A stretch of DNA of 63,738 nt, filler included, from Pelomyxa schiedti (Eukaryota; Protista; Evosea): NCBI GenBank assembly GCA_020536535.1. It is 6 parts of 6 records of this genome, joined end to end, with 100 filler letters (N's around TTAATTAATTAA, not from the genome) between each part and the next. Parts side by side here need not be neighbours in the genome. Positions count along the whole stretch, not along the records: positions 1 to 17,406 come from JAHLWZ010001129.1; positions 17,507 to 33,649 come from JAHLWZ010000683.1; positions 33,750 to 55,448 come from JAHLWZ010000063.1; positions 55,549 to 56,988 come from JAHLWZ010002503.1; positions 57,089 to 61,514 come from JAHLWZ010001595.1; 1 more part is not named here. One strand, 5' to 3'. The translations under genes and the position numbers were made by a program. Below the pieces are notes generated by a model. The model worked only from the letters and a program-made list of their open reading frames with translations. It made no database searches and was not told the DNA's origin. Positions 6,536 through 59,005 of this stretch are shown in pieces; the stretch's first letter is position 1, and each line of letters starts with the position of its first letter.

Positions 6536-7672
6536 TCAGCAGACGCGACGTAATGCACACTCTGTTAGCATTTTGAAGACAGGTATCCCAGAGAAATGTA
6601 TGACTTCAAAGTAGTGTGCCTTCGTGTCTTTCGGTTCCAAAATCACCAGGTCCTCTGCAAAAAACATGTTGGTGCCTTGCTCTTCTCTGCGGATGCAAAA
6701 CACGTGATCTCGTGCATGAACGCCATGCACCTCAACGCGGTGGTCACTGAACCAGGTGCACACGTAGTATGGGCCGCCAACTAGCCGTGTTTGGTTAGGA
6801 ACTACACCAGGGCGTGCTGTTCCTCGAGGCAATGGTGTCCTCTGGCCAGTTGTCAGGCACAACAGACCACCATTTTCAGACAGAAGCGCGTAGGCCATTC
6901 CCTTCCAGCACACAAGGCCGTCAACGTGCTCGTCGCCGTGGAGTACATCAGTAATTGGCCAAGGGCTCCCAATCAACCTCTGGTGTGCCAAGCTGGATTC
7001 CAGGTCGATCACCATCACACCCACCCCCTCTTCCTGTGCGACGACCAGCGAGCCGCTCTCTCTCCCCAGCGCCGCCGTGTGCACCTTCCACGGCAGGGCA
7101 ATGCCCTGCGCGGTCCTCACCTTCCCAGACTCGATCCCATCAAAGTTCCAGAGTGCCATCGTTGTCCCTTGGATGACCGCAGCCCAGCGCCTGTCGCTGT
7201 AGCACCTGGCATCTGCGTTGGGAATCTCCCAGTTGTCGCGGTCTGTGGCTTCTCTGCCGGTGTTGGTGTCAATCACACACAGCCGTGGGGGTCTCTTCAT
7301 GACTGTCACTCTGAGTACCAGTGCGTATCTTGTGTCGGCGGCGGCGGCGGGACCCACCCACCCTTGAAAAGCGAGGGCGATGTTGCAGCCAAGGTTGACA
7401 ATTGTGGGATGGCCGACAAGGCCGAGCGTCGGCGACACGCGGAACTTGACCCAGTGGTCGTTGTTCCAGCGGTATTTCCGGTCTTTGAGCTCCAAGACTA
7501 CGTTATGGGAAGGGAACACGATCCACTCACGGCCAATGACCGTCAACAACGAGGCCGAGAGGGACGACACCGGGCTGTGGCGACCACACCGTCCCACAAT
7601 GACGCCCACGCCGAGGGCGATGAACTGGCAGCGGGCGTAGGTTTGGTCCTTGATTGTTAGGGTCTGACGAGG
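6536..7672 (-). CDS. Intronless 'RCG..SP-box' family protein with beta-rich C-terminal domain (copy 1); start codon unresolved
   Basis: Open frame begins 'QTYARCQFIALGVGVIVGRCGRHSPVSSLSASLLTVIGREWIV', then 'FRVSPTLGLV' and a beta-rich body. The nearest ATG (7688) is one base out of frame. Confidence 0.6.
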   Translation of the reverse strand, partial: PRQTLTIKDQTYARCQFIALGVGVIVGRCGRHSPVSSLSASLLTVIGREWIVFPSHNVVLELKDRKYRWNNDHWVKFRVSPTLGLVGHPTIVNLGCNIALAFQGWVGPAAAADTRYALVLRVTVMKRPPRLCVIDTNTGREATDRDNWEIPNADARCYSDRRWAAVIQGTTMALWNFDGIESGKVRTAQGIALPWKVHTAALGRESGSLVVAQEEGVGVMVIDLESSLAHQRLIGSPWPITDVLHGDEHVDGLVCWKGMAYALLSENGGLLCLTTGQRTPLPRGTARPGVVPNQTRLVGGPYYVCTWFSDHRVEVHGVHARDHVFCIRREEQGTNMFFAEDLVILEPKDTKAHYFEVIHFSGIPVFKMLTECALRRVC

Positions 7673-7849
7673 AACTCGTCTTGATCATCTCGTTTTTTCG
7701 ACCGTGGGGGAGGTGGCGAGTAAGTGTGTGGTGTGGAGAGTTCTCAGTGTGGCTCCAGGTTTGTTTTTAGTGTCGAGGCAAGGAATTCCATGGGGGTCTA
7801 CCCTGGAATGATGAAGAGGAAAACAAGACTCAATCATTCGCAGGTTGAA

Positions 7850-10422
7850 ATGAGTGGAAGCAGCCACAACCCGAGTTCACCGGCACCACTGACGGGAAAT
7901 GCTCTCGTTGATTGCGTGGGAGCCATTGTGGCCGCCCTGGTCAATGCTTACGACACTGGTGACATCCCACTATTCTAAACAAAACTGTCTCTTCTTCTTT
8001 TTTTTTTTCCCCCATTAATTCTCCCCAAGGCGACGGGGATACGATGTCACGAAAGGGAGTGAGTAAGTTGAAATCTGCACTGGCAAATAAATTCGGATTG
8101 CCCACTGCTCCAAAGACTGTGGATGTCATTGCTGCCATTCCTGAAGTTCGTTTTGACAAATATGCTATGATAAACTTAGAGAGTAAGAGATAATAAATAC
8201 CTGTACTACAATGCTTTTTTGGGGAGGGAAATATAAAGCCAAAAACCAAAATCAACCACTGAATTCCTTAGGCCTACAAAGCTGGGTTGGTTCCCATTCT
8301 CAAAACCAAGCCAGTAAGAACTGCATCAGGAATTGTGGCTGTGGCCGTAATGTGCAAACCTCATCGGTGTCCACACATAGGTTTCATACCTTTTCTTGCA
8401 TAAAGAATGAATTCTCACTGTGTGCAAGTGCGAACTGGAATGGTGTGTGTATACTGCCCTGGAGGTCCCGACTCCGATTTTGAGTACAGTTCCCAGTCTT
8501 ACACTGGGTATGAGCCCACAAGTATGCGAGCAATACGTGCTCGATACGACCCCTTCTTACAAGCCAAGAACAGGCTTGATCAACTTAAGGTACCCCTACA
8601 TATCTGAAATGGGTACAGGATAATAATCACTGTATTTTTATTATTTTATTTGTGTAGCGTCTGGGACATGCAGTAGACAAAGTGGAGTACATTGTAATGG
8701 GCGGCACCTTTATGGCCTTGTCACAGGAGTATAGGTTTTTATCTGGTAAGATCTTGCTTGTCTGATCTCCAACCAGAGATAGCTTTATAATTAGCCTCCA
8801 TGATGCATTGAGTGGGCACATTTCTACAACTGTGGAAGAAGCTGTAAGATTTAGTGAGCAATCAGTTGTAAAGGTGAGTGTGGTTGGGTTTTTTGGTACT
8901 AACAAAGTTTTCCAGTGTGTTGGACTGACAATAGAAACTCGGCCAGATTGGTGTTCAAACAATCTTGTAAGAGATATGCTTCGATATGGTTGCACTAGAC
9001 TGGAAATTGGTGTTCAAGTATGTGAACCACGGATACTAAGCTGCACACTAAAAGCCTATGTACATTAGAGTGTGTATGACGATGTCCTGTTGGCAATGAA
9101 CCGTGGTCATACTGTTGCGACAGTAGTGGATTGCTTCCATAGATTACGTGATGCTGGATTCAAAATTGTGGCCCATATGATGCCAAACTTACCAGCTATG
9201 AATGAAGAAAGAGACATGTAGTTTCCTAGTCATCAACATCTACTTTCCCTGAGAATCCATAGAAATACCTTTGCCGAGCTTTTTGAAAACCCTGCTTACA
9301 GACCTGATGGTTGGTAGTTCCTTTCTGAAGGAAGCATTCTTAGAGCCCTTAGGAATGAAAGTCTATCCTTGCTTAGTCATGAGAGGAACTCAATTATTTG
9401 AAATGGCCAAGGTTGTCTTTCCTAGAAGAATTCATGCAAGGAAGGAGCTGATCTTATATAGACAGGTCAATACATTGGCTATTCTACCAGTACATTAGTT
9501 GATGTTCTTGCCAAAGCTCTTTGCCTTGTCCCCCCTTGGACGAGATTGTATACTTTCACTGTTTATTTATCGACTTGTTAATTTGTTGTTCAGGTATAGA
9601 ATTCAGCGAGATATTCCCATACCAGTAAGACTGGTTTTTTTTTTCCCCCTTCATTTTCCAACATTCAAATAGTTGGTGAGCAGTGGTGCTGAATCTGGAA
9701 ACCTGAGACAGTTGGTGTTTGCCAGAATGCAAGAAAATGGAGCCAAATGCCGTGATGTAAGGTATTTTTATGGACTTTTTTCGGGAAAAAACCTTGAGTT
9801 TCACTAAGTGAACCCTCAGAACTCGCGAGGTTGGTATACAGAGTATCCACCATAAGATTAATCCAAATGAAGTTGAGCTGATAAGGAGAGATTATTGCGC
9901 CTCGGAAGGGTATTTTTTACCTATTCCCTAATGTCATGCCATCTTACAGTAAACAGTTGGGAGACATTCCTGTCTTATGAAGATGTGCAACAAGGTAAAA
10001 AAAAAAAAAAAAAACATTTCCACGTTATTTATTTAACCAACGATTCCCAAGATATTTTGATTGGTATGCTGCGACTACGTAAACCCACACCATCAGCAGT
10101 GTGTTCCGAAATGCAACCCCCAAACAGCACATCTATAATTCGGGAGCTACATGTTTACGGGTCTGTGGTACCAATTCACAGCAGAGACCCCCGACAGTTC
10201 CAGGTACTTATGAAGTCCTTTTTTTCCCCCAACACTCAATTCTAACACAAAAAAAAGCATCAAGGCTACGGCACCCTTCTCATGGAAGAGGCAGAAAGAA
10301 TAGCACGAGAAGAGCACAAATCCACCAAGATACTCGTAATAAGCGGCGTTGGAACACGCCATTACTACATGAAGTTTGGCTTCAAACATGACGGACCATA
10401 TATGTCCAAACCTCTTGTATAA
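7850..10422 (+). CDS. ELP3: Elongator complex protein 3 (radical SAM + GNAT tRNA acetyltransferase), multi-exon
   Basis: '[20 protein letters not shown]', '[37 protein letters not shown]', '[10 protein letters not shown]', '[11 protein letters not shown]', 'CTRLEIGVQ', '[12 protein letters not shown]', '[17 protein letters not shown]', 'GPYMSKPLV*'. Confidence 0.97.
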
Positions 10423-17400: not shown

Positions 17401-17406
17401 CGACAA

Positions 17407-17967: not shown

Positions 17968-19224
17968 TTAGCCCAAAAACGAGCTTCTAGGGTCCAATGT
18001 TACAAATTTGGAAGGAGGGAACGAGAGATTAAGGATTGCAATGGCTGTGCCAGACAATGCCTCAATCAGTGCGATCTTCCCATTTCCCTTACCTTTTTCT
18101 ACTTGCAGAGTAAACAGGAACCCTCTGCCAGCAGTGACCTGGAGAAACCTGGGCGACTCGGCAGTGCACAGCACCGTTCTCAGAGGTGCCCCGGGGTTGT
18201 TGCAATCCCACAGAGAGTACGCCCTAGTTATGAGGCTCCAAACGCAGAACAACGAGGAGCTTACTTGCCCCAGCTCCGTGCATTCCCAAGTGATATCGTG
18301 GACCCTTCCTGAGGTGGATTCCACCAGAGTGACTAGACCACCCGCCTCAACAACAAAAGACACATCCCCGCACCTCCCCCTCATCGCCAGTGCCTTGATT
18401 CCAGTCCCGTACCTCCAAGCGGTTTCGGTCCTTACCACAGTCGCCAGTATCTTGGAACGGTATGTGCTTCTCACATCAAACAGAGTGATTGCAATGCCGC
18501 CCAAACCAGAGGTCAGCACCATTGCCTCGTCTGGCACCATCCTGTTGAAGCACAAGTCGCTCCAACCAAGCAGGCCAGAGTTGTCATAACTTCCAGGAAT
18601 TGGTATCACGACCTGGTCGGAAAACGCGCCGCGCGTCGTTGTGCCCTCCCCTATCTCCCAAATCGACAGGGTGGTGTCTCCCCGAGAGTCCCTGTTGCAC
18701 ACCGCGAGCCAGCTCTCATTGAAGTAAGCCAAGGTGTGTCCCTTCCACGGCCCAGTCGGCGCGATACACCGGCCGAGGGGAGTGTCCTGCCAATCAACGT
18801 ACATCATGACCGTGTACTTGGGCTTGTAGATCTCGCTCAATCCGGCCCTGTGTGACACCATTCGCCGGAGCGGGTCCATAAGCCCGCAGCGGAGCTCGTG
18901 CGTGACGCTCAGGAGCAGCGGGGACACCCCCACAACGAGGAGGTAGCTGCAGGGCGCGACGTCGAAGACGAGGGCGAAGCGGGAGGCCGTGGCGAGGACG
19001 AGGTCGCGCCACAGGGACCCGCCGACGAGGGAGGGGACGGCGCACAGTGGGCGGGCTGGGCTGAGTGCCCCGCAGCGCGGGTGCGACGAGGCGGCCAGGG
19101 CCATGAACTGGGAGTGCGCGGTGGGGGCCGCCACCTCGACACGGGACCACAATGGGTCTCGTTTGTGGCTGGGCGAAGGATCAGCGGCAACGAGCCGTTG
19201 TTGCTGTGTGGTTGTGTCCGTCAT
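17968..19224 (-). CDS. Intronless 'HPRCG..SP-box' family protein (copy 2)
   Basis: ATG 19224. 'AHSQFMALAASSHPRCGALSPARPLCAVPSLVGGSLWRDLVL' ... 'GVSPLLLSVT' ... 'PDEA' ... 'QVSSSLFCVW..YSLWDCNN..PLR' ... 'EALSG'. Confidence 0.8.
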   Translation of the reverse strand: MTDTTTQQQRLVAADPSPSHKRDPLWSRVEVAAPTAHSQFMALAASSHPRCGALSPARPLCAVPSLVGGSLWRDLVLATASRFALVFDVAPCSYLLVVGVSPLLLSVTHELRCGLMDPLRRMVSHRAGLSEIYKPKYTVMMYVDWQDTPLGRCIAPTGPWKGHTLAYFNESWLAVCNRDSRGDTTLSIWEIGEGTTTRGAFSDQVVIPIPGSYDNSGLLGWSDLCFNRMVPDEAMVLTSGLGGIAITLFDVRSTYRSKILATVVRTETAWRYGTGIKALAMRGRCGDVSFVVEAGGLVTLVESTSGRVHDITWECTELGQVSSSLFCVWSLITRAYSLWDCNNPGAPLRTVLCTAESPRFLQVTAGRGFLFTLQVEKGKGNGKIALIEALSGTAIAILNLSFPPSKFVTLDPRSSFLG

Positions 19225-19366: not shown

Positions 19367-20250
19367 TTAGCCAATGAAAGAGCAGGACACATTGACCTCA
19401 AGAGCCCACTGTGAGATTGAAGGAGGGAATGAGACACGAAGAGTTGGTGTGCCAGATAATGCTTCAATCACTGTTAGAGTCCATGTCTTCTTTCGTCCAG
19501 ACTCCTTCTCCCTCTCCTGATGCAACTCGATCAGGAACCTCCTTGCTGCTGTGACCTGTAAAAAATTGGATGAATTCTCAGGGCTCCTCACAGTTCTCAG
19601 AGGTGCCTCTGTGTTGTTGCAATCCCACAGTGAATATGACTTGGATGTATAAACCACAACACGCAGAACACAGAGGAACTGATTTGACCCAGATATGTAG
19701 ACTCACCAGGGATCCTGTGGGCACTTCCAGTGGTAGCTTCCACCTGAAACACCCTGGAGGATTCGAAAAACGAAAGCCACTGAACCACATCTCCTCCTCA
19801 TCACCAATGCCTTGATTCCAAAATTCCCAAACCTACTCTCTGTTTGCACCTTCAACACAGTGACGAGGCTCTTGGATCACTGGTATAAACCACCAGTGAT
19901 CACCACTGCCTCGTCCGGATCCATCTTGTTGAAGCAGAAAGCATCAGAATCAGGGGCATCACTGCTAGCAATTGGCATGACAACCGGTCCCATTTCGACA
20001 CTCGGAAATGACTCTGAAGTTGTTGTTGTTTTCGACAAGCTCTCTCCTCCAATTTTCCATGGATTCCCCCTCAGGTTGCTTGTTATGCAACACGATCCAG
20101 TTCCCATTGAAGCACATACACATCCCCCCAATGGGGATCGTGTGTGGCACCCTCTGGTAAGGATTCCTGCCAATCGCCAAACATCAAGAAGGAAAACGGC
20201 GCAAAGCACCGGGAGATCCCAGTCCTGTGCGACACCATCACCCGGCTTGG
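19367..20250 (-). pseudogene. Frameshifted, 5'-truncated paralog of 21895-23151 (family copy 3)
   Basis: High nucleotide similarity to 21895-22820, with deletions splitting it across ORFs 19877-20209, 19597-19788 and 19367-19657. The N-terminal box is absent. Confidence 0.85.
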
Positions 20251-20520
20251 ACTCACACAGTATTCAGACACCAATGGACCTCCTCCGTTGCTGTCGTTCT
20301 CAACTGAAACGAGCCGTTGTTGCAGCATCTGCAAAATCTGATAATCAGAAGTGAAAGAGGGGGAGGTTGTACAGGATGTGTGCCGGGTCACAATGAGGCC
20401 AAGAAGTTTGCAGTGATGGTGAAAAGACAGGATGCATGCCACGGTGTATTTCTTGTCACTCGGGAAGCCACACCTCCGTTTCAATCAAAAACTTCACTTT
20501 TCTACGAACACCAATTGAAA

Positions 20521-21729
20521 ATGCACAAGGCACACAGCGGGGCCGTACAGGATTCGCAGTGGGCACTAGACCAAGTGTTGGCGCTGGTGACGGCGTCTCA
20601 CCCTCGTTGTGGCGCCCGCAGCCCCGCTCGCCACTTTGTGTCCCTGTCGCCGCTCGCCACCGCACCATTGTGGGACTGGTGCCTCCGCGATTCCGAGGTT
20701 GTTTTTGGTCTGGCGGCGTGGCACCAAAACCCCCTAATCGGGCCATTGTCGAGTTTCGTCACATTTGGGGTTTCGGCTGCGCTGATGGGAATCACCAGGG
20801 ACGTGAAGTTGCACGGCACCTGGAGCTTGTGGGACGCACAGGTGTTCCAGGCTGTTGTTGACCCACACCGCTTTGTTTATGTTTCGGAGGTAGACGGCCT
20901 CAGGTTCAGATTCTCGTTGATGAGCTTGCCTACTGGTGAAAGTCAATCCATGTTCACTGCACTTGATGGGGTGCTCTGTCATCAATCAAGTAGGAGGTGG
21001 TGGATACACTGCGGGTCAAGGGAAAGGCTGACAATTGTCAACTTGGAACAGCTTCCAAACCAACAGCACCAGTTCGACCCCGTCACAGTGGATATTCCTC
21101 AGTGTTACAAAGAACAAGCAGCCGACGGTGCGTTATCCTCTTCTGTCATGGGAATTATCTTCAGTTCTAAATTCCCTGATGAGGCACTGATTACTTTGGC
21201 TGCTGGGCTTCCAGTAACATCCACGTTCTTTCTCTTGATTGATGTCAACAGAACATACATATCAGGCAGAATAGCTCTGCTGAGCATGACCAAATGTGAT
21301 CTTGGACGAGGAGGCTTGGTATTACCACTCCTTGTGATGCACAAGGCCAATGGAAAGCACACTTTCATCTGCCACCAGGTGCAAAAACGAACCTATGGCC
21401 CTGCCATCGAACTTACAGAAGTTACAGGCACTACAAAGCAACTTGCCAGCCACGTGCGCGAAGTATCACAGCTGGGAACATTCTTGTTTTGCATTGCAAA
21501 GACTGATTCCACAGTTGAAGTCTGGGACTGCAGAAGTGCGGAGGGGTCTACACTGGTCAGGATCCTGGAGGCGAGGCCAAATGCCTCCCCTCTCGTTACT
21601 GCGCACTCAGGATTCTTGTTCCACAGACACAGGAGTCAACTTGTGGATTTGACTGACCCATTTGGCCGTTTCATTTGTACCATCACTTTACCCATAACAC
21701 CCAAATCTGTGGTCGTCACCTCATTCTGA
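20521..21729 (+). CDS. Intronless 'HPRCG..SP-box' family protein (copy 4)
   Basis: 'ALDQVLALVTASHPRCGARSPARHFVSLSPLATAPLWDWCLRDSEVVF' ... 'TFGVSAALMGITR' ... 'PDEA' ... 'SQLGTFLFCI..VWDC' ... 'SGFLFH'. Confidence 0.8.
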   Translation: MHKAHSGAVQDSQWALDQVLALVTASHPRCGARSPARHFVSLSPLATAPLWDWCLRDSEVVFGLAAWHQNPLIGPLSSFVTFGVSAALMGITRDVKLHGTWSLWDAQVFQAVVDPHRFVYVSEVDGLRFRFSLMSLPTGESQSMFTALDGVLCHQSSRRWWIHCGSRERLTIVNLEQLPNQQHQFDPVTVDIPQCYKEQAADGALSSSVMGIIFSSKFPDEALITLAAGLPVTSTFFLLIDVNRTYISGRIALLSMTKCDLGRGGLVLPLLVMHKANGKHTFICHQVQKRTYGPAIELTEVTGTTKQLASHVREVSQLGTFLFCIAKTDSTVEVWDCRSAEGSTLVRILEARPNASPLVTAHSGFLFHRHRSQLVDLTDPFGRFICTITLPITPKSVVVTSF

Positions 21730-21812: not shown

Positions 21813-21878
21813 CCGGAACACTGTAGTTTTCGTGTCATCGCCCAGTCTCGGCGGTCTGGTGTTTTTTTTCTTCAGCCA
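21813..21878. repeat. Partial (one-arm) copy of the MITE-like element at 57307-57451
   Basis: 'ccggaacactgtagttttcgtgtcatcgcccagtctcggcggtctggtgttttttttcttcagcca' aligns with 57387-57451. Confidence 0.75.
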
Positions 21879-21894
21879 ATAATATAATGTATTT

Positions 21895-23151
21895 TTATTC
21901 TGTGAATGAGCAGGACTCGTTAATCTCAAGGTTGCACTGTGAGATTGAAGGAGGGAATGAGACATGAAAAGTTTCTGTACCAGACAGTGCTTCAATCACT
22001 GTTAGAGTCCATGTCTTCTTTGTTCCATACTCCTTCTCCCTCTCCTGATGCACTGTGATGAAGAACCCCCTTCCGACTGTGACCTTGAAAAAAGTTGAGG
22101 AATCCTCAAAAATCCTCAGAGGTGCCTCTGTGTTGTTGCAATCCCACAGTGAATACGACCTGGAATTGAAGAACCACATGCAGAATACAGAGGAACTGAT
22201 TTGACCCAGATATGTGCACCCACTACAGATCCTAGTGGCACTTCCCGTTTGGGATTCCACTTGAAAAACACCCTGGATGAGCTGAACAACGAAAACCACT
22301 GAACCACACATCCTTCTCATCACCAATGACTTGATTCCAAAAGTCCCAAACCTCCCCTCTGTTTCCATCTTCAACACAGTGACGAGGCTCTTGGATTCGT
22401 GTGTATTTCGCATATCGATCAAAGTGAACGAAGTGCGGTCAGTTCTGGTATCACCAGTAATCACCACTGCCTCGTCTGGATCCATCTTGTTGAAGCAGAA
22501 AGCATCAGAATAAGGCTTACCACCCCAAGAAATTGGCATGACAAATGGCTCCATTTCAACACTTGGAAATCCCTCTGAACTTGTTGTTGTCAACAAGCTC
22601 TCTCCTCCAATTTTCCAAATTGACAGAGTGGACTCTCCCTCAGATTGCTTGTTGTGCAACACGATCCAGTTCCCATTGAAGTACATACACATTCCCCCAG
22701 TGGGGATCGTGTGTGGCACCCTCTGGTAAGGAGATTCCTGCCAATCGCCAAACATCAAGAAGGAACACGGCGCGAAGCACCGGGAGATCCCAGTCCTGTG
22801 CGACACCATCTGCCGGCTTGGCCTCAGCGGCCCCCATCGAGCGTCGTGCGTGACGCTCAGGAGCAGCGGGGACACCCCCACAACGAGGAGGTAGTGGTCG
22901 GTACCCACGGCCACCACGAGGGCGAATCGAGTGGCCGTCGCGAGCACGAAGTCGCGCCACAGGGACCCGCCGACGAGGGAGGGGACGGCGCACAGTGGGC
23001 GGGCTGGGCTGAGTGCCCCGCAGCGCGGGTGCGACGAGGCGGCCAGGGCCATGAACTGGGAGTGTGCAGTGGTGGCGAACACACAAGATTCTGGACCAAT
23101 GGTGTCATCATTACCGACAGGGACAAGCCGGCTTGTTTCTTGTTGTTGCAT
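21895..23151 (-). CDS. Intronless 'HPRCG..SP-box' family protein (copy 5)
   Basis: Same N-terminal box as copy 2, then 'CFNKMDPDEAVVI', 'QISSSVFCMW..YSLWDCNNTEAPLR', 'EALSG'. Confidence 0.8.
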   Translation of the reverse strand: MQQQETSRLVPVGNDDTIGPESCVFATTAHSQFMALAASSHPRCGALSPARPLCAVPSLVGGSLWRDFVLATATRFALVVAVGTDHYLLVVGVSPLLLSVTHDARWGPLRPSRQMVSHRTGISRCFAPCSFLMFGDWQESPYQRVPHTIPTGGMCMYFNGNWIVLHNKQSEGESTLSIWKIGGESLLTTTSSEGFPSVEMEPFVMPISWGGKPYSDAFCFNKMDPDEAVVITGDTRTDRTSFTLIDMRNTHESKSLVTVLKMETEGRFGTFGIKSLVMRRMCGSVVFVVQLIQGVFQVESQTGSATRICSGCTYLGQISSSVFCMWFFNSRSYSLWDCNNTEAPLRIFEDSSTFFKVTVGRGFFITVHQEREKEYGTKKTWTLTVIEALSGTETFHVSFPPSISQCNLEINESCSFTE

Positions 23152-26255: not shown

Positions 26256-27140
26256 ATGGTACGTCCCTCCCATAATCCCAAACAAAAACAGCACAACGCC
26301 GCCGCCGCGCACCAAGTCCCAGCCGCACACCAGCCGCACAAGCTGACGGCCGACGTCTTTGTACGCCACGACGTCGCGGCGCTCCGGGCGTGGCTGGACA
26401 CGCAGCCGCCGGGCGAGAGGCGCAAGGGCCTCGTCGACCGCACGCACGTGCTGCCCAACAAGACCGCGCTGCACCTCGCCTGCGAGTCCTGCGACCTCGA
26501 CATGGTCCGCCTGCTCGTGCTCGGCGCCCCCGACGGCTCGGACGGCGGCGCCCGCGCCGACCCCGACGCCCGCTCGTCGCCGCTGCCGCCCCTGCGCGTC
26601 GCCGTCGGCAGGCAGCGGCCCGACATCGTCGCCGCGCTCCTCGAGGCCGGCGCCGACGCGAACCGCCGCGGCGCCGACGGCCTGACCCCTTTCTTCTTGG
26701 CGTGCGCCAACGGCAACGAGAAGATCGTCGAGGCGCTGCTCCCCCGCGCCGACCCCAACGCGGTGCTCGTCGTGCCGCAGAACTCGATCTACGCGCCCAT
26801 CCCATCATCCACTCCCACAGGCTCCTCGTCTACGTCAAAGGGAGCTGCAGCAGCCACCGGCAGCGCGTTCGGCGTGGCGTGCTGCAACGGCTGCATCAAG
26901 GTCGTCGGGCTGCTCCTGGACCGCGGCGCGGCGGATCCCACAATCCGGTACCTCGGGGAGACTCCGCTAACATTAGCACAGCGGTGGCACCCGCAGGTGG
27001 CGACGTTGATCAAGCGGCACCTGTGGAAGCCCGTTGGGGCACTGGCCGTTGCCATGCACCGACGAGCGGGGGCTGCATCTCCTGCTCGTGGGATGTCATC
27101 ATTCCTGCTGCAGCACATCGCATTCTACTTGCTGATATGA
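26256..27140 (+). CDS. Intronless ankyrin-repeat protein with C-terminal 'H.R.G..SP' box
   Basis: ANK repeats 'KTALHLAC..DLDMVRLLV', 'PPLRVAV..DIVAALLEAGADAN', 'GLTPFFLACANGNEKIVEALL', 'GETPLTLA'. The C-terminus is 'VGALAVAMHRRAGAASPARGMSSFLLQHIAFYLLI*'. Confidence 0.85.
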   Translation: MVRPSHNPKQKQHNAAAAHQVPAAHQPHKLTADVFVRHDVAALRAWLDTQPPGERRKGLVDRTHVLPNKTALHLACESCDLDMVRLLVLGAPDGSDGGARADPDARSSPLPPLRVAVGRQRPDIVAALLEAGADANRRGADGLTPFFLACANGNEKIVEALLPRADPNAVLVVPQNSIYAPIPSSTPTGSSSTSKGAAAATGSAFGVACCNGCIKVVGLLLDRGAADPTIRYLGETPLTLAQRWHPQVATLIKRHLWKPVGALAVAMHRRAGAASPARGMSSFLLQHIAFYLLI

Positions 27141-40032: not shown

Positions 40033-41250
40033 TCAAATGAAGGCAGCAGCACTAACACGAAGAGTGCCATAACGAAATGACAGTGTGGCAATGATGCGTG
40101 TTGATGATGAAGCATACACCTCGACGCAGCTCTCTTGCTCAGAAATTTGACGTTTGTGGAAGATGAACTCGGGGAATTGCACCACCCTCTGATCTGAATC
40201 ACGCCTGGCACTGATGACTCTCACTGGTGCAGAGGTGTTGTTGCAGTCCCAGATTCCAGAAGAGCCATCAATCTTTGTGATGCAAAACAGGGAGGAACTC
40301 AGCTGTGACAGGGTCTGCACTTGACTGGAAATTTTGGAAATCTCACCCACAGTCTCCACAACTTCATGAACTGTCCTGCCTCTGAGATCTTCCACTACAA
40401 AGAAGGACCGCTCTCCAGTAGATTTCTTCATGAAAATGAAGTACTCAATATCGCCTTGGATTTGAAGACACTTGGTGGAGCTCAACACAGCCAGCTTCTT
40501 TGTTCTGTATGTTGTCTCAACGTCAATCACCACAAGGCAGTTGAATTTCCTATCTGGTTGACACACAAACAACACTGCTTCATCAGGAATCCCTATGCTG
40601 AATGAAACTCCACACCACCTTAGGTTTTCCTCTTGAATTGAGGAAATATCAATTCCAACCTTGTCAAAGCTCGTGGTGCTGATTCCACAACCGGCACCCA
40701 TAATCAGGCGCACGATGGTCATTTTGCCAGGTTTCTCACAGTGCACCCACCACTTTTTGTTTCCGCTGCGTGCACTCAGCAGACCAGTTCGCCAACTAGT
40801 CGTAAGCAATAGTTGATTCTGCTGAGTAACAACGTCAACCAGTGAGAAGTCGAATGTGTCTTCTGTTTCCTGTGGGACAATGACGAGGGATGGGCTTATG
40901 GGAATTGGCATGCCAAGCACAACTGGGCTCCAGGGCCAGTGGTTGTGCAACTTGAACTCCCTTGTGACTCCCATAAGTGCACACGACACTCCGAATGTGA
41001 AGTAGCACAAACAGCTACTGAGCCGAACTTGTCTCGACAGCGCAACTGAAACAGCAAATACAACTTCCGAGTCGTGGAGGCACCAGTCCCACAATGGTGC
41101 CGTTGCTAGGGGAGGCAGGGACACGAAGTGGCGCGCGGGGCTCGACACACCACACCGATTGTGGGACGCCATGACGAGGGCATGGAGTTGTTGTCGTGCA
41201 CGGAGCGACACCTTCACCTCTGATATCGAAGGGTTTGTTCGGCCGATCAT
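40033..41250 (-). CDS. Intronless 'H.RCG..SP-box' family protein (copy 6)
   Basis: 'ARQQLHALVMASHNRCGVSSPARHFVSLPPLATAPLWDWCLHDSEVVF' ... 'TFGVSCALMGVTR' ... 'PDEA' ... 'SQLSSSLFCI..IWDCNNTSAPVR'. Confidence 0.8.
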   Translation of the reverse strand: MIGRTNPSISEVKVSLRARQQLHALVMASHNRCGVSSPARHFVSLPPLATAPLWDWCLHDSEVVFAVSVALSRQVRLSSCLCYFTFGVSCALMGVTREFKLHNHWPWSPVVLGMPIPISPSLVIVPQETEDTFDFSLVDVVTQQNQLLLTTSWRTGLLSARSGNKKWWVHCEKPGKMTIVRLIMGAGCGISTTSFDKVGIDISSIQEENLRWCGVSFSIGIPDEAVLFVCQPDRKFNCLVVIDVETTYRTKKLAVLSSTKCLQIQGDIEYFIFMKKSTGERSFFVVEDLRGRTVHEVVETVGEISKISSQVQTLSQLSSSLFCITKIDGSSGIWDCNNTSAPVRVISARRDSDQRVVQFPEFIFHKRQISEQESCVEVYASSSTRIIATLSFRYGTLRVSAAAFI

Positions 41251-41405
41251 TCGCCTAATTCAGATCCTGACACTTTTCCTTTTTAAGCAAATTTGTGGGA
41301 AATGGCAACCGGTGCCCCACCCAGCGACGACTCCGCGCGTTCGAGGGGCTCGATCGCCGCCAACAACAACAACCACGGACGCCGCCGCGGCGGCACGTCG
41401 GCAGG

Positions 41406-42763
41406 ATGGTCGCCGTCGCGGCACCCCCGACTACATCGACTGCAACCACAGCATCAACAGCAGAAACAAAGCTAACGGCCACACCTCCTCCTCCTCCTCC
41501 CAGGACGAGGCCGTGGACTACGGCGAGGGACCAAGTTGGGGCGCTGGCCCTCGGGGCGCACCCTCGCTGCGGGGCGATGTGCCCACTTGCGCTTATTACG
41601 GCGGCTGCGACGAATTATGGGAGTGCGGCGGCCGCCGCGGGTGGCGGCGGCGATGGGACCCTGGCTCTGAGGCTGCTGTGGGAGTGGCTGATTGACAACT
41701 CAAGGCTATACTGCGTGAGGGTGGGAACTGGAGGGGGGGGCCTTATGTTGTCATCACGTTCGGTGTGTCCTTGGTTCTGCTGACACTCACGCATGGCGCG
41801 ATGTGGTGGGCTGAGCGGGGTGCCGAGGGGATACTGTGCTCAAGCCGGGACTACTTGGTGAAGCACAGGTATCAGGTGAGTGGGTTCCTGCAGGACAGGG
41901 TAACTGGCCAGAGGATCCAGTTGCTGGATGAGGCCTATTTTGATCGTTCCAGTACCACCTTTGCCACAACTGGGAAGTGGCTTGTGTTTTGGGACCAAAC
42001 TGCAAGGGAGATGATTGTTGTTGAGATACCAAAGAAGAACAGTGCTGGTCCAACTGCATTCAAGGCTCCAACAGTGGTGTCAATGGGTGCCACTGTCAGT
42101 AGGAAGTTGACTCACTGTCTACCTCAGTTTTCCAGTTTCGACGAAGACCTGCTTTTACTATTGTTCTTTTCTCCTTACAACTTGTGTGAGATTATATTGG
42201 TGGACCTTGTGCGAACGTGTTCATCCAAGACATTGGCGGTTCTGAGTTCCACTGTTCCAAGACTGGAGGACTTGCACATCCCAAATTATCAGGATTTGGT
42301 CAGGCTTTATTTTGTTGTCACACAAGAGAGTGGTGCTCGTGCATTTATCACTGAGGGTTATGTTTCCGATGCATCCGAGATCATTGCCATTGAGGAGGGA
42401 ACTGGCAAGTTGAAAAGGCCATGTCAAACACTTGGAGCACGTGCTCCTCTGTCATGGTGTCGTTCACAACAGCTGAACAAATCACAATTCTGTGCTTTTG
42501 GATCAGAAAGTGAGTATGAAGTGTGGGATGTCGATGACTCCACCAAACCAGTGAGGACACAGAAATTCCGTGGTGCCTTCCCCAAATTGGGTTTTGTTGA
42601 AGGTGGTCTGCTGTTCCAACCAGGTGAAGGTGAATCCACAAAGGAGATACAGGTCACTGAAGAATGCACCGGTGCCCACATTGTCACATTCAGGTTGTTC
42701 AGGCCCCTCGGTTGCTTCGGTGCTCACTCTTCTTTTGCTATCTCCGGCACTACAAGAATTTGA
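41406..42763 (+). CDS. Intronless 'HPRCG-box' family gene (copy 7) with a frameshift in a G8 tract
   Basis: 'ARDQVGALALGAHPRCGAMCP..LRLLWEWLI' in one frame. After G8 (41733-41740), 'PYVVITFGVSLVLLTLT' ... 'QLNKSQFCAF..YEVWDV..KPVR' ... 'GGLLF' continues in another frame. Confidence 0.75.
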
Positions 42764-49000: not shown

Positions 49001-49781
49001 AGCAATCCTCAACAGTAAAATCTCACCTCCGCCATCATCGGTACCCCCTCCCTTAACCATTCCACCTCCGCCATCGCTGGCTTCAGATATAATTTCCCCG
49101 GCCACGAAGCGCCGGTTCACGGCCTCGCCGCCGTGCACGCCGCCCGTTCCTCCCCCGAGCGAATCAAACAACCAGTCGCCCTCCCCACCACTCACCACGG
49201 CCCTCTCCGTTCCCAGCTGTACAGTAGCCATAGCCCGCGGAATCAGCCCCAAGACACACTCCCTGATTCCACCACCCAATTCCATCCCCCCGCCACCATC
49301 AGCGATTCCAACACCACCAACACCAACAACCACAACAACTACTACTACCACCACTAGCACAATACTGCTACTGTCACCAACCACGGGTGCCCGGACCTCA
49401 CCCTCAACATCACCATCATGCATCACCCCCGCATCGGCGATCCCACCACCGCCACCATCGTGCAATCCCTCGCACATTCCCCCGCCGCCGAGCACCGTGG
49501 TGAGAATTCCAATTCCACCCCCGCCGGGCCTCCCGACGCCCATCCCATCGCCCCACCACTCATCATCATCATCATCATCGAAACAAGGTGGTGGTGGTGG
49601 TGGTGGTGGTTCCACCACTGACCCGCCACCGCCATTCCGGGAGTCAACACTGATTCCGCCTCCACCCACACCCGGTACCAGCATCAGCAGCGGCGGGGGT
49701 GGCGGGGGGGCTGTTCTATCCGCGGCGGCGCTGCTTCTGGGCCCAACCCCGAACCACCACTCCCCCTCTAAAAGCACCTGA
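43055..49781 (+). CDS. Large Pro-rich Rho regulator: degenerate RhoGAP-like domain + DH-PH + second DH, multi-exon
   Basis: GAP-like 'LIKFLKYLTESLFP..LRIMINSL'. DH1 'RKKAVDELCATETIYLEKL..IFCNI..LGDIFL..LIQRMPRYILLIEELIKNTPSTHPD'. PH 'VWLLTDL..WVQKIQNAL'. DH2 'LHTSEAKYLKNL..WLDKPLKRLQEY'. Stop 49781. Confidence 0.8.
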
Positions 49782-49901
49782 TATTGTAAAAAAGCCGTTC
49801 CACAATACTCGGAATCAAAGCTACAAAGTACATGCATGTCGGACGACGACCAGGAAGACGCACTTATGTTTTGTTGGCACCCACGGTAACAAGTAAAAGA
49901 G

Positions 49902-50411
49902 GGAGCCTTTCTTTTGTTTGTTTGTGGCCTATCTGCTTAAAAATGTGTACAACCATAGAAGGAGCCAGGCAAGACAGACCAGGAGCAAAATCCCTGTTGG
50001 CACTCCTCGTCTACTCTTCCTTTTACACTTGGGGTCGACATAGTTCAGGCAGCGCAGTTGTGTCTCAGGGTCAAGGTGAAATTCCCAGGATACAGTCCGA
50101 GAACTTGTGGAAATTGATGGAATCAGCCAGCGCAGGGTTTCAAAATCAAGGAATCTCGGAATCACTCCCACGTAAGGCTTGGGGGCTATACACTGATAAT
50201 ATGCACAGCCATTCGAGTCTATCAAATTGGCGCGTATGAAGAGTCTATAGCCAGTAAGCCAGTGCCCGTTATTGACGGTTGCCCACAGCGTCAAAACGTG
50301 TGTAACAAGGTTGAGCTCCCACTTCACTGTGGCGGAGCGTCCTGGTTCTGGCTTAGGCCATTGATAAGTATCCGAAATTGTGTGAGAAAATGCGGGGTTA
50401 CGACAGAGAAT
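49902..50411 (-). repeat. Near-identical duplicate of the 3' end of the 52750-54974 gene (52724-53232)
   Basis: Direct alignment with scattered substitutions. Confidence 0.88.
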
Positions 50412-50511
50412 NNNNNNNNNNNNNNNNNNNNNNNNNNNNNNNNNNNNNNNNNNNNNNNNNNNNNNNNNNNNNNNNNNNNNNNNNNNNNNNNNNNNNNNNN
50501 NNNNNNNNNNN

Positions 50512-51220
50512 CCCGAGCGAATCAAACAACCAGTCGCCCTCCCCACCACTCACCACGGCCCTCTCCGTTCCCAGCTGTACAGTAGCCATAGCCCGCGGAA
50601 TCAGCCCCAAGACACACTCCCTTATTCCACCACCCAATTCCATCCCCCCTCCACCATCAGCGATTCCAACACCAACAACCACAACAACAACAACTACTAC
50701 TACCACCACTAGCACGATACTGCTACTGTCACCAACCACGGGTGCCCGGACCTCACCCTCGGCATCACCATCATGCATCACCCCCGCATCGGCGATCCCA
50801 CCACCGCCACTATCGTGCAATCCCTCGCACATTCCCCCGCCGCCGAGCACCGTGGTGAGAATTCCAATTCCACCCCCGCCGGCCCTCCCGACGCCCATCC
50901 CATCGCCCCACCACTCATCATCATCATCATCGAAACAAGGTGGTTCCACCACTGACCCGCCACCGCCATTCCGGGAGTCAACACTGATTCCGCCTCCACC
51001 CACACCCGGCACAACGACGAGTACCAGTACCAGCATCAGCATCAGCAGCGGCTGCGGGGGTGGCGGGGGGGCTGTTCTATCCGCGGCGGCGCTGCTTCTG
51101 GGCCCAACCCCAACCCCGAACCACCACTCCCCCTCTAAAAGCACCTGACATTGTAAAAAAGCCGTTCCACAATACTCGGAACCAAAGCTACAAAGTACAG
51201 GCATGTCGGACCAGGAAGAC
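50512..51220 (+). repeat. Near-identical duplicate of the 3' end of the RhoGEF gene (49154-49857), probably a second haplotype
   Basis: Same 'PSESNNQ..HHSPSKST*' with indels in poly-Thr/Gly tracts, immediately after a 100-N gap. Confidence 0.85.
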
Positions 51221-52453
51221 GACGCCGTGTCGGCAAGCAAGAGGCCGCGGTGTACAGCAGCAATAAACAGCAGCGACCAAAGCACGGCACAAGGGGGGCA
51301 GGGGCGGAGGGCCTAAACCGGCCTGTGGGACCCAGGGTGGTGCCTGCCCCACGCCGACGTGCCCATCCCACAACGAGGCCCCAGGGCTGGACCAGCGACG
51401 TGTGCCGACATCGACATCGACTGCGACCCGCCAGCCGCCCGAGGGGTACAGTGGCAGGGTCAGGGGGAGGGGCTTCTTACATGTACAATTTGGCGGCTGC
51501 CATCGACAAGGTGCACCTGTGTGTGTGCGCGTGCGTGCATACATCTATGATGTGCTGCGTTGGAATTTGGCTGTGTGGGATTGACTTGTGGGAATGCCCC
51601 AGGCCGGTGCGGACATTACCAAGGGAGTGGACACGCTGGTAAAATTCATGAAGCTGCGCGTTGACAATCTTCTTGAGGAGAGGCGTGCCTCTTGAGCGAT
51701 GTATCAAAGACCCACGAGGTTGTGCCACTATTTTTCAAACCACTGCTAACTCAAGTCAATTAGGAGTCCTTCGAACACCTTAAACTTCACAACTCAATTC
51801 TTTGACAACAAAACAGAAGGTAAATAGTTCACCAATATCGCAACTCATTTCTTTCAGGTTTTTCTTCCTACAGTGAGAATAGAATCAATATTTCAAGGCT
51901 CTTGTGGTGCCATTTCAGTTGTCAGAGGTGTGTGCATGTGCATGGGCTGAGGTTGAATTAATTTAACGTCGATAAGGCAAACACATCCTGGACATTCCCT
52001 GTGCCGTTTTGCGGATTGTCGTCTCGTACCTTCCACAGGATTCATTCCAGAGGCGTTTTAGCGGGGGCCGGGATTTCCGGAAGGTTGCAGAAACCTCCAG
52101 TAAGTAGTCGCCCATAATTCAATGACCAACATTTTACAGTCCTTGAAAGTTTCGCTTCATGTTGGATGATTTCCGAGTTGACTGCACAGGGTTTCTCAGA
52201 ATCCACCTCTCCTGTGAAGAGTATCGGTAAGGGTAAGCTCAAGACACCCCTGGCAGACATCAATTTCAAGGCAATAGTAAAGTCACCAGCATCATCCAGC
52301 CCTCATATCACTGTAACAATTGCAGTTCGCAAGATAAAAATGGGACACCTTTTCCCTGTGAAATTGGGCTTGGACCTGGCCGGCTACCAAAAACGCTACT
52401 TCACAGTGCAGCCTAAGCAAATGAGAGATATCTCCCTTGGCAAAATGCACTAG
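51203..52453 (+). pseudogene. Possible degraded multi-exon gene present in only one of the two copies
   Basis: ATG 'MSDQEDDAVSASKRPR', GT-AG bounded fragments and ORF 52166-52453, interrupted by stops. Confidence 0.3.
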
Positions 52454-52749
52454 ACGGCAACATACAGATGATAGCAACAATTGAGAGTATCAACCAGGAA
52501 TAGCCATTTCATATCCAACAACACAACCATACACCCGTGGAAACAAAGGCCCTGTTGGAGAAATAGCGGGAAAAAAAATTAAATTTCTCAGTCTTTTTTG
52601 ACGGGAAAATTATGCATGGGGATGCAAAGAGATATGTCACTCTTTTACTTGTTACCGTGGGTGCCAACAAAACATAAGTGCGTAGTATGACGGAGATGGA
52701 ACGGGTGGGTGATTATTATTAGTGAGCCTTTCTTTTGTTTGTTTGTGGC

Positions 52750-54974
52750 CTATTTGCTTAAAAATGTGTACAACCATAGAAGGAGCCAGGCAAAACAAAC
52801 CAGGAGCAAAATCCCTGTTGGCACTCCTCGTCTACTTTTCCTTTTACACTTAAAGCGGACATAGTTCAGGCAGCGCAGTTGTGTCTCAGGGTCAAGTGGA
52901 AATTCCCAGAATACAGTCCGGGAACTTGTGGAAATTGATGGAATCAGCCAGCGCAGGGTTTCAAAATCAAGGAATCTCGGAATCACTCCCACGTAAGGCT
53001 TGGGGGCTATACACTGATAATATGCACAGCCATTTGAGTCTATCAAATTGGCGCGTATGAAGAGTCTATAGCCAGTAAGCCAGTGCCCGTTATTGACGGT
53101 TGCCCACAGCTTCAAAACGTGTGTAACAAGGTTGAGCTCCCACTTCACTGTGGCGGAGCGTCCTGGTTCTGGCTTAGGCCATTGATAAGTATCCGAAATT
53201 GTGTGAGAAAATGCGGGGTTACGACAGAGAATNNNNNNNNNNNNNNNNNNNNNNNNNNNNNNNNNNNNNNNNNNNNNNNNNNNNNNNNNNNNNNNNNNNN
53301 NNNNNNNNNNNNNNNNNNNNNNNNNNNNNNNNTCAAAACGTGTGTAACAAGGTTGAGCTCCCACTTCACTGTGGCGGAGCGTCCTGGTTCTGGCTTAGGC
53401 CATTGATAAGTATCCGAAATTGTGTGAGAAAATGCGGGGTTACGACAGAGAATATCTGGTGACCAAGGTTAATGATTTTGTGGGGAACAAGCTTGAGTAC
53501 AAACGGCGGTGGGGTTCAGCAAGTTTTCTTAGTTGCTTTTCTTTTTCCTCCAACGATTGTTCCACCTCTTGGGTGTATTTTAAATTCAGAGCGGTAACTG
53601 CCATTTGGTTGACTTGGAGAACGCCCGATTTCTCGCTTACAGCTTCAGGGAAACTCGCCTGAACATCCTTTATCGAGGTTAGGTTCAATATAGCCAATTT
53701 ATAACAACCTGGGCCATCACACCAATATGTTTTTCCGTCTCCCCAGGGTACGAAAACTTGCATACTGGTAAATGCCGAAGTCGAGATGATACATCCTGTT
53801 CCATTGTGTGTACGTTTTCTTTTCTTCTTGAATCGGAAAGAGTATAATAGTTTTTAGCATATGCATTTGTGCAATGAAATTCCGAAACGCTGGATTTGGT
53901 TAGAGACTTCCAAAGGAGGGGTAACTCACTATTCGCTTTCACATTGACAAAAAGAGGGATACGGAAGTTGAGGGTTTGTGCACGGGGATGGGGTTTCTTC
54001 TTGACGGGTAGTGCTATGTATGGAAGGAAGATCGGAGTCGACACACTGAGTAGTGGGCTGAGGGTCACCCGGATTACCAAGAATATCCTCAAATGTAGAA
54101 GGATATTCAAAAAGTAGAGGCAGAGGTGATGGCCCGGTAGTAACAGGAGTTGCAGTGTTCAGTGCCGGCACTGCCAAGGGAGGCGGTTGCGTTGGCCCAC
54201 TATATCCCCCACCCAATCCCATAGCCGGAGGTGCCCCATTGTACAGGGGAGGTCGAATTGTAATTACACCTGCACCGGGACCGGGACTAGCATAGTTAGC
54301 AGTGAGTGTAGTAGTACTCGTGCTTGTCTGGTTGTAGCCACCACCATATGCAGTGGTGCAGCTACATTCGCCATCCCACGCAGCGCTTTGCCGTCCGTCC
54401 ACAGCAGCCGACAGAGGGACAACAGTGTCGACGACTAGGCAGCTACTTGCACCGGCTGAACTGTTAGTAGTGGCACTCGTGGTTGTAATGGCGGTAGTAC
54501 TAGTACTGGTATGAGCACGGGCACCGGTACCGTCTGTTCGAACTATCTTACGGGGTCTTTTGGCGGAGTGGTTTCCCCTCTTCTTAGCTCGAAAACCGTG
54601 GNNNNNNNNNNNNNNNNGGTTGTAATGGCGGTAGTACTAGTACTGGTATGAGCACGGGCACCGGTACCGTCTGTTCGAACTATCTTACGGGGTCTTTTGG
54701 CGGAGTGGTTTCCCCTCTTCTTAGCTCGAAAACCGTGGCGGTCGCGGTGCGTCTGCCTCTTTTTGTGCGGCGTTAGGCAGTTCTCGCAGCCTTTTTCTTT
54801 GCAGTACCAGACAACGCAGTCAGGGTGGAGGACCATGCACTCAGCTAAATTCGATGTCTTACCGGTGCCATAATCGTCCGTGATGTTGTGCTTTGTGCAC
54901 TTGTATGTGCCATCGGGTACCTTATTCGTCTCATCTTCTTCATCATCATCACCATCATCATCATCATCAGACAT
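52750..54974 (-). CDS. Hypothetical protein with acidic N-terminus, Cys/His (possible Zn-finger) region, basic NLS-like stretch and Pro/Thr linker
   Basis: 'MSDDDDDG..YKCTKH..ECMVLHPDCVVWYCKEKGCENCLTPHKKRQTHRDRH..AKKR..KRPRK', continuing through ORFs 53929-54402, 53440-53763 and 52750-53232. Confidence 0.5.
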
Positions 54975-57306: not shown

Positions 57307-57451
57307 TGGCAGAATAAAAAAAACACCAGACCGCCGATACTGAGCTACGATACTGCTATTTTATGGCAATAACATAATCAACAGCCCGGAACGCTGTCAT
57401 TTTCGTTATCATCGCTCAGGATCGGCGGTCTGGTGTTTTTTTATTCTGCCA
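57307..57451. mobile_element. MITE-like element, ~145 bp with ~45-bp terminal inverted repeats
   Basis: Left arm 'tggcagaataaaaaaaacaccagaccgccgatactgagc' is nearly the reverse complement of right arm 'gctcaggatcggcggtctggtgtttttttattctgcca'. A second partial copy lies at 21813-21878. Confidence 0.65.
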
Positions 57452-57506
57452 CCAGCATTAATGCAGTTCACCTCCCTGCAAAGGGGTAGAAAAACCCGGT
57501 GAGATC

Positions 57507-59005
57507 TCACGGGTTAGCGTGCTTGTAGGCGCCCGAGTCAAACAGGAATCTTGGGGGGTTCACAACAAATTCACCAACACAAAACCCTGATACACCATCG
57601 TGCACTTTGAACCTCACTTCGTTTGCGTGATTGTCACTCACCTCATCGTCAATGTGATGTGCTGTGGAAACAATGAGCCCTGTGGAGGAACTTGCACATG
57701 CCCACGTGCATGGAACACACAGTGTTGGCTCATCCAGAGTGGTTCCAGTCTGATACACCCGGAATTCTGTGATTGTATCACGTGATGCAACCGTCGCGTG
57801 CCTCTTTCCAACTGGGGTGACATTGCTTGATGGTGGGAAATATGGCCCTTTGGTGGTGGTGCCTTCAACAATGAGGAACGGCGATGAACTCAGTTGGTGG
57901 AGAGTGCACAGGCTCCCATCAGGCATCCACATGACACTGCACACCGATGGCTCATTGCGCGCAATCTGTGACATCACGACCAGCTTCTGTGCCCTGAAGG
58001 TAGCCTCCAGGTCAATGAGAATGGCAGTGGACCCCAACTGGCTCCCAGTATCATTCCTGCCGCCATCAACACACACTGCAATTACGTCATTACACCAAGG
58101 CAAGAACTGAGGCCTCCCCCCGAAGAGTTCTGAACCACGAAGGCGAACCTCTGGCCTTTGAGGCTCTCCACCAACGACCTTCCACAAACGAGCCTCCTGT
58201 TGCTCAGGAAAGAACAACACAATCCACTTCCCATTGCACCTCCATCTGCTCGTGAACTCGCTCCCACAATCCCGCATGTCGCCAGACCAGAGCTTCCGCG
58301 AGGTGGAAATTGCGTCGTGGTCAAGAGCCCACCCAACCCTCCCACAATTCACAACGCGGCACTCCGCACCCCAACTTTGGAGGTTGACGGATGCCACTAG
58401 AACTGTGGCTTGTCCTGGGCTTCCACACACTTCCTTCGTCCCAAAGCACGTGAACCAGGAGGGGTGTCCCACAATCCCAAGCGTCGGAGACACACTCACG
58501 CACAGAAAGCAGTGTCCCGACCCACAATCCTCAGGTCGCCTCTCGGACTCTCTCCTGCGTTCCCTCTCGTAATCGAGGAAGGGGCGCCTGAACGGGAGTT
58601 GGAAAACAGCAGATCTTTCAGGCCTGAGGACCCAGTCCTCAGCCCACGACCGAAACAATGAGGGAGACCGGCACCACTGCGCCATCGCGGATGATGGGAC
58701 NNNNNNNNNNNNNNNNNNNNNNNNNNNNNNNNNNNNNNNNNNNNNNNNNNNNNNNNNNNNNNNNNNNNNNNNNNNNNNNNNNNNNNNNNNNNNNNNNNNN
58801 AGGGGCGCCTGAACGGGAGTTGGAAAACAGCAGATCTTTCAGGCCTGAGGACCCAGTCCTCAGCCCACGACCGAAACAATGAGGGAGACCGGCACCACTG
58901 CGCCATCGCGGATGATGGGACTAGCGACCCCACCACGGCCGCGCAGCCAACCGCCATCACTTGTGCCTTCCCTGTTGTTGTCGTAGTAGCACCACTCGTT
59001 GTCAT
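57507..59005 (-). CDS. Intronless family protein with divergent box (copy 8); contains an assembly gap/duplication at 58701-58920
   Basis: 'GKAQVMAVGCAAV..SSAMAQWCRSPSLFRSWAEDWVL' ... 'VSVSPTLGIV' ... 'CNGKWIVL' ... 'LIDLEATFRAQKLVVMS' ... 'GLI..VHDGVSG'. Confidence 0.7.

Follow-up and report, generated by a model that had tools for sequence, protein, structure and literature searches.

A short conserved box on a family of predicted propeller proteins in Pelomyxa schiedti: a probable half-F-box receptor module

Introduction

Why would an amoeba with an intron-dense genome carry a dispersed family of intronless genes, most of which begin with the same short box? The question arises from a stretch of 63,738 nucleotides of Pelomyxa schiedti (assembly GCA_020536535.1), the window, in which six scaffolds are joined with separators starting at 17407, 33650, 55449, 56989 and 61515. 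A preliminary description reported eight single-exon loci on four of these scaffolds, seven with an N-terminal box, and proposed that they encode adaptors of the F-box or SOCS type. Our analysis suggests that the box is probably a half-F-box receptor module for SCF (Skp1–cullin–F-box) ligases, one that Pelomyxa has multiplied by birth and death. The box would dock the protein on Skp1 and cullin, so that every propeller could present a target of its own to the SCF ubiquitin ligase.

Results

All eight loci are present and belong to one family. Run on the six-frame translation, a profile of the box made from 23 relatives that lie outside the window finds copies 6, 4, 5, 2, 1 and 7 at E values from 5e-29 to 7e-8; the best unrelated frame scores E 0.036. 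A family profile spans the bodies of all eight loci, spread over four of the six scaffolds, and detects copy 8, which is absent from its seeds, at E 2.6e-22. Copies 2 (17968..19224, minus strand; box 18985-19140), 4 (20521..21729, plus strand; box 20551-20691) and 6 (40033..41250, minus strand; box 41065-41223) are intact genes with box and propeller, and copy 5 (21895..23151, minus strand) has an intact box (22939-23079) and body. Copy 8 (57507..59005, minus strand) is a distant member with a degenerate box, split by a scaffold gap at which a duplicated 121-nt overlap is an assembly artefact.

The remaining three loci are broken. In copy 1 (6536..7684, minus strand) a box of the IVGRCG subtype at about 7502-7657 precedes the propeller body, but the first in-frame ATG comes only after the box, and the ATG at 7688 is in another frame; the copy is probably a pseudogene or has a spliced 5' end. 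Copy 3 (19367..20255, minus strand) is the pseudogene that had been reported: its box is lost, there are several indels, and the family profile recovers it in pieces, with long blocks 80-96% identical to copy 5. Copy 7 (41406..42763, plus strand) had been taken for a plain gene. It is a pseudogene as well, with the box (41511-41696, carrying an Ala/Gly insert) and the body in different frames. A G-run near 41732 breaks the frame, contigs of both DNA runs carry further indels, and the lesions differ between the two runs.

Six of the seven boxes first described are clear, but the match to that of copy 8 falls short of significance (E 0.19-0.25); copy 3 has none. A ninth box in the window had been overlooked. 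It forms the C-terminus of an ankyrin-repeat gene (26256..27140, plus strand; box 27009-27137, E 3e-5 with the box profile), with the stop directly after the last helix. An RNA-run contig spans this box and its stop (26912-27146) and skips a GT-AG intron past the stop.

The single-exon structure is borne out by stop-free open reading frames of 405-474 codons at four loci and by RNA-run contigs that are gap-free over 17983-18725 (copy 2) and 40044-40664 (copy 6). In a neighbouring gene, contigs of these RNA runs do have GT-AG joints, of 40-45 nt. We examined four sequencing runs, all from one study, as contigs; copies 3, 4, 7 and most of copy 5 have no RNA-run contig cover, and contigs cannot prove absence. 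That the genome is intron-dense agrees with the genome paper, which gives an average of 7.43 introns per gene (PMC8887013).

In six publicly annotated proteins (P0002, P0010, P0016, P0017, P0060 and P0103), the annotation merges copy 3 with copy 2, removes an intron from the open frame of copy 4, and fuses family members to a kinase, E2, RasGAP or Sel1 domain; many of these models are probably errors. Copies 6 and 7 stand head to head, and in run X1 their spacer of about 155 nt (41250-41406) shows several indels relative to the window.

What does the box look like? Modelled alone, the copy 6 box has helices at residues 3-19, 31-34 and 38-52, with a loop after the first (predicted local distance difference test score, pLDDT, 87). 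Within its 45 residues, a long helix is predicted to lead, by way of the HxR(L/C)GxxSP loop and a short helix, into a second long helix. The preliminary description knew only the RCG form of Pelomyxa. The general form is HxRLGxxSP, is often C-terminal and is found in other lineages. Profile comparison shows the Pelomyxa-type and the canonical box to be homologous (98%, E 2e-13, aligned over 41 columns), and a profile made only from 42 non-Pelomyxa boxes places the seven boxes of the window at the top of its ranking (E 6e-6 to 0.38). Among the propeller-type boxes of Pelomyxa the Q-x-x-A-L and RCG positions are strongly conserved.

Fold searches with the box alone returned nothing distinct from VIA (best Z 4.3, root-mean-square deviation 2.2, 44 residues aligned) and no Foldseek match in PDB or BFVD at E<=0.001. 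Neither an F-box nor a SOCS box is listed in these searches, and a helical model of 53 residues cannot discriminate between them. Against PDB sequences the box profile found designed armadillo repeats and Mre11 only.

The box is far more constrained than the body, a comparison that the preliminary description had called for. In two paralogue pairs, the ratio of nonsynonymous to synonymous substitution (dN/dS), from pairwise counts, is 0.19 for the box in both and 0.47 and 0.57 for the body. Between copies 2 and 5 the synonymous distance (dS) is 0.10 over 47 box codons and about 1.0 over 275 body codons; the numbers are small, yet such a low distance in the box suggests that it has been homogenised by gene conversion between these copies. 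The box also has a high GC content at third codon positions. We rejected a box-specific cause in favour of a general 5' effect, because in the ankyrin gene this content is lower at the 3' box.

The body is predicted to be a multi-bladed, four-strand beta-propeller. The AlphaFold2 model of copy 5, from a 14-row alignment, has helices up to residue 70 and strands thereafter, with a predicted template modelling score of 0.57. Its body retrieves propellers in the top rows of a VIA structure search (best Z 14.4, root-mean-square deviation 5.3, 290 aligned) and mostly propellers in those of a Foldseek search (best E 7e-7). The body resembles many propeller kinds with no standout. It belongs to no Pfam family, with one weak KIB1-4 match among 133 proteins.

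How large is the family? A box-profile search of 1.84 billion sequences gave 136 cluster representatives at E<=0.001. The body is present in 124 of 138 gathered proteins. Of the remaining 14, 11 have a different layout, one is a fragment, and two (P0082 and P0084) are repeat-driven false hits that we dropped from the count. The family therefore has at least 124 members, a floor owing to clustering at 50%. All eight proteins returned by a search with copy 5 are hypothetical proteins of Pelomyxa schiedti, and Pelomyxa is the named organism for 18 of 20 relatives (the other two are nameless) and for 10 of 10 in a sample. The family is lineage-expanded in Pelomyxa by birth and death, with pseudogenes, and in this respect the first description of a constant box on a variable body was right.

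The box itself is not confined to the family. Among the cluster representatives it is joined to ankyrin repeats in five and placed before Kelch repeats in one. A motif scan of metagenomes gave at least 120 loci, with a true box in 118 of 120 among the matches listed. Partners in the 86 frames scanned, again among the matches listed, include ankyrin, RCC1, WD40, RING, PQQ-like, actin and helicase domains, and many of these frames are without any family. Two loci (L079:112-1629 and L093) fuse an N-terminal box to a full actin domain, and two others (L124:99-1487 and L194) hold ankyrin repeats, box and RING finger in a single frame. Overall, the box stands at either end of ankyrin, Kelch, RCC1, WD40, LRR-like and PQQ-like domains, and it does so in bacteria as well as in metagenomes and on giant-virus contigs. 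The box is portable, as had been claimed.

In bacteria its distribution is patchy. The GTDB motif scan found 14 loci, all with a true box, in 10 genomes. These are Dependentiae and Rickettsiales, together with a bin named Coxiella and with contigs that seem misbinned, one of which also carries a giant-virus capsid gene. Four of 121 genomes of the phylum Dependentiae have the box, in up to 14 copies (some genomes with 5, 5 and 14), as do three of 201 genomes of the order Rickettsiales. The strict pattern found nothing in IMG/VR; narrower queries gave the giant-virus-like bin G011 and one further giant-virus bin. A tblastn search of phages with an ankyrin-box protein returned ankyrin matches only. 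F-box proteins favour the same hosts as the box (PMC4209131).

Two sets of contigs in bacterial bins deserve mention. A Methylococcus-named bin (G002; L007, L045, L051, L053 and L056) holds 14 small proteins ending in the box, and its contigs look viral or eukaryotic; neither G002 nor G011, the latter a record 58% complete, has a capsid-gene match. Stop-free frames of more than 1300 residues (L010, L012, L039 and L089), which hold two boxes and end in LRGG as ubiquitin-like proteins do, are possibly a eukaryotic mobile element.

Could the family be nothing but cargo or debris of mobile elements, without a cellular role? The genes are intronless and dispersed, three of the eight loci are broken, and two have an inverted-repeat element just downstream. 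The complete element (57307..57451) has 145 nt, long terminal inverted repeats and TG...CA ends, lies about 55 nt past the stop of copy 8 and folds with a z-score of -12. We saw no target duplication around it. One arm lies just past the stop of copy 5 (21832..21878), and because many contigs pile up on it, it must be repeated in the genome. However, the box is under purifying selection, two copies have RNA-run cover, the same box exists in other lineages, and a Pfam scan of 133 proteins found no transposase family. Mobility could also account for the spread and leave function intact. Hence, we regard this explanation as hardly credible.

Is the box an F-box? It matches no Pfam family in the window proteins, in 133 relatives or in 52 box segments, and it was indeed unassignable to a named domain. 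We compared it with a reference of 26 F-box-like segments from Dependentiae. The canonical non-Pelomyxa box aligns with these over 21 columns on helix 1 (probability 35-46%, E 2-4e-4), a score reached by none of 100 column shuffles; its second half weakly resembles F-box helix 1 (LPxE(I/L)LxxI). The first half gives no alignment with F-box helices 2-3, and a circularly permuted F-box, in which the first helix corresponds to helices 2-3, found no support (E 0.56-0.59). Among the metagenome matches listed, 36 of 110 frames end within 20 residues past the SP motif, some of them at exon or contig ends. By the tests run, the box is outside the F-box and SOCS families, yet its plan is that of half an F-box behind a novel front part; the first helix and the HxRLG loop are new. 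We found no description of this box, and no paper pairing Pelomyxa with F-box, in the literature searched, where coverage of subscription journals is limited.

One could also argue that only the canonical box is an SCF module, and that the propeller-type copies of Pelomyxa have drifted to another conserved partner, to self-assembly or to capping of the propeller. Their F-box-like half is reshaped by inserts and an added Trp and has lost the F-box alignment, while the Q-x-x-A-L and RCG positions stay strongly kept. Yet the Pelomyxa box still aligns with the canonical form over 41 columns, and the layout of box plus propeller recurs elsewhere with Kelch and PQQ-like propellers. We consider such drift distinctly unlikely.

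Which adaptor would the box bind? In SCF ligases the F-box, cullin repeat 1 and Skp1 meet at one interface, where F-box helix 1 touches both Skp1 and cullin repeat 1. Two gene contexts outside Pelomyxa bring the box close to these partners. In G011 (L075:3808-9817), seven co-oriented tandem ankyrin genes with eight variant boxes end 31 nt before a Skp1 gene that appears intron-bearing. The box matches 13 times in G011, where no F-box-like match turned up; the Skp1-bearing G012 shows the opposite, with seven F-box-like matches but no box. G011 was reached independently of the box, by scanning IMG/VR for a Skp1 motif, which gave 11 loci, seven of them real Skp1. The second context is one apparent gene on a metagenome contig (L120:2372-3675). 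It starts with an ATG and a box, which a frame break of one base, or else a 29-nt intron, separates from cullin repeat 1 (Pfam Cullin, E 1.4e-6); after this, pieces of Skp1_POZ run to the contig end (E 0.005 and 0.001; all 24 PDB hits are Skp1). This arrangement may be a natural single-chain SCF fragment, or possibly a decoy. The evidence points to Skp1 as the candidate adaptor, ahead of Elongin C and DDB1. A complex prediction of the copy 6 box with an amoebozoan-type Skp1 (P0157, not Pelomyxa's own) scored 0.02, made without alignments and with controls not folded, and so speaks neither for nor against binding. A Skp1_POZ scan of five box-bearing genomes gave no match but is equally uninformative, its controls matching nowhere either.

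Elongin C is the obvious competitor. The box could be a divergent SOCS or VHL-type box that binds Elongin C with Cul2 or Cul5, or the cullin N-terminus directly, its first helix acting as the BC-box helix and its last as the cullin box. In its order of helices (long, short, then another) and in often standing behind ankyrin repeats, it resembles ASB proteins, and the cullin piece of L120 is closest to Cul2. However, no Pfam SOCS_box or VHL-box match appears in the window proteins, the 133 relatives, the 52 box segments or the metagenome frames. A SOCS-box scan of 64 genomes gave no sequence either, but carries no weight because its controls also matched nowhere. The BC-box pattern is (A/P/S/T)LxxxCxxx(I/L/V), and the conserved positions misfit it when position tables of 143, 64 and 96 boxes are read by eye. 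In both gene contexts the adaptor next to the box is Skp1 and not Elongin C. A SOCS or VHL-type box is therefore unlikely.

A third possibility is a DCAF-like protein, with the helix-loop-helix docking on DDB1 and the propeller capturing substrates of a Cul4 ligase. A helical hairpin followed by a propeller is the layout of DCAF proteins. The box, however, frequently follows ankyrin repeats in proteins that have no propeller, and the gene context indicates Skp1; the WDxR motif of DCAFs is not conserved in the propeller, most rows reading WDCN and one of 14 WDCR. We hold this possibility to be very improbable.

Elsewhere in the window, two minus-strand frames at 15252-16547 look, by eye, like a decayed P-element-type transposase, and an exon at 3347-3844 (minus strand) looks, again by eye, like the small subunit of ethanolamine ammonia-lyase, a bacterial-type enzyme. 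At 48800-53500, proline-rich exons are duplicated, with repeats of 120-300 nt and two near-identical gene segments. Exact 121-nt duplications at scaffold gaps (36090-36431, 39466-39807, 53112-53453, 54481-54738 and 58580-58921) are assembly artefacts.

Discussion

Our favoured answer is that the box is a half-F-box receptor module. Its second long helix would act as F-box helix 1 on Skp1 and cullin, while the first helix and loop would substitute for the missing helices 2-3. The propeller would select targets, Pelomyxa would hold the box constant while propellers diversify, and bacteria and viruses that infect protists may use the box to tap the host ligase. We favour an SCF receptor because the set of partner domains (ankyrin, Kelch, RCC1, WD40, LRR-like and PQQ-like) is that of cullin receptors. 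Further reasons are the distribution of the box, the two Skp1 gene contexts, the F-box helix-1 profile match, the homology of the Pelomyxa and canonical boxes and the constraint on the box.

Several results weigh against this answer. First, Pfam's F-box clan matches none of 10 window proteins (E<=1), 133 relatives (E<=0.05) or 52 box segments (E<=10). Second, the F-box link of the Pelomyxa boxes is transitive, because the propeller-type boxes alone, whether as 133 together or in three subgroups, fail to align with the F-box profile (E 0.26-0.75); the best-conserved box residues sit in the half that has no F-box counterpart. Third, both Skp1 links are single cases outside Pelomyxa. A box lies within 1.5 kb at only one of the seven real viral Skp1 loci, and Skp1 was seen in one of 120 metagenome box loci among the matches listed. 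The box variant of G011 lacks the His, in a record that is 58% complete. In L120 a frame break separates box and cullin, and the cullin piece is nearer to Cul2 (E 8e-4) than to Cul1 (E 0.1-1). Fourth, actin, helicase and fibrillarin-like partners are untypical of receptors, and the propeller model is middling (pLDDT 60). The adaptor proposal of the preliminary description therefore stands in part: the partner spectrum and the Skp1 contexts speak for it, but the link rests on homologues outside Pelomyxa, and a standard F-box or SOCS box, as Pfam defines them, was not found.

A bolder version, which we put forward tentatively and would not be surprised to see fail, makes the HxRLG box a separate, unnamed class of cullin-ligase receptor: half an F-box plus a new helix-loop that grips Skp1 or cullin. 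It would be widespread in microbial eukaryotes and copied by giant viruses and intracellular bacteria. In Pelomyxa it would be a conversion-homogenised plug on more than 100 fast-changing propellers that police symbionts and parasites. A role of the family in host-microbe conflict is something we infer.

If the box is a receptor module, then a single short profile would give a ligase role to more than 100 hypothetical Pelomyxa proteins, and would do the same for many ankyrin proteins of giant viruses, Dependentiae and Rickettsiales that so far lack an explanation. A receptor box missed by Pfam would change counts of SCF receptors in protists. It would also provide a test of whether Skp1 can engage F-box helix 1 together with a different partner helix. 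The family would be a candidate means by which an amoeba that harbours several symbionts controls foreign or own proteins.

How does the box compare with known systems? Among the closest are F-box proteins with propellers (F-box-WD40, F-box-Kelch and plant F-box/KIB1-4), which share the short helical N-terminal box, the variable propeller and the large lineage-specific expansion with pseudogenes; the canonical box also has a helix-1-like segment. It differs from them in having no helices 2-3 and in an extra helix and HxR(L/C)GxxSP loop before the helix-1-like segment.

ANK-PRANC proteins of poxviruses and Orientia, and the chlorovirus proteins A682L and A607R, join ankyrin repeats to a cut-down C-terminal box, as in G011 and the bacterial copies. 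To our knowledge, the HxRLG half is absent from PRANC and from the chlorovirus box motifs, and PRANC gave no match in our scans of relatives and metagenome frames. A682L and A607R are described as ankyrin proteins with F-box-like C-termini alongside a viral Skp1, A039L (PMC7019647).

ASB ankyrin-SOCS proteins and VHL-box proteins, which work with Elongin B/C and Cul2 or Cul5, likewise have a three-helix box, often C-terminal to ankyrin repeats; a three-helix SOCS box is described in one study (PMC2741574). They are set apart by the SOCS_box match and the BC-box pattern that our box does not have, and by the linked adaptor genes, which here are Skp1.

The F-box and BTB expansions of the Parachlamydiaceae, for which birth-and-death expansion is reported (PMC4209131), are likewise cases of birth and death of box-plus-repeat proteins associated with amoebae. 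Expansions described in amoeba-associated bacteria provide further parallels (PMC6561590; PMC4776705). The Parachlamydiaceae use a recognised F-box or BTB domain in the bacterium, whereas here an unnamed box has been expanded in the amoeba itself.

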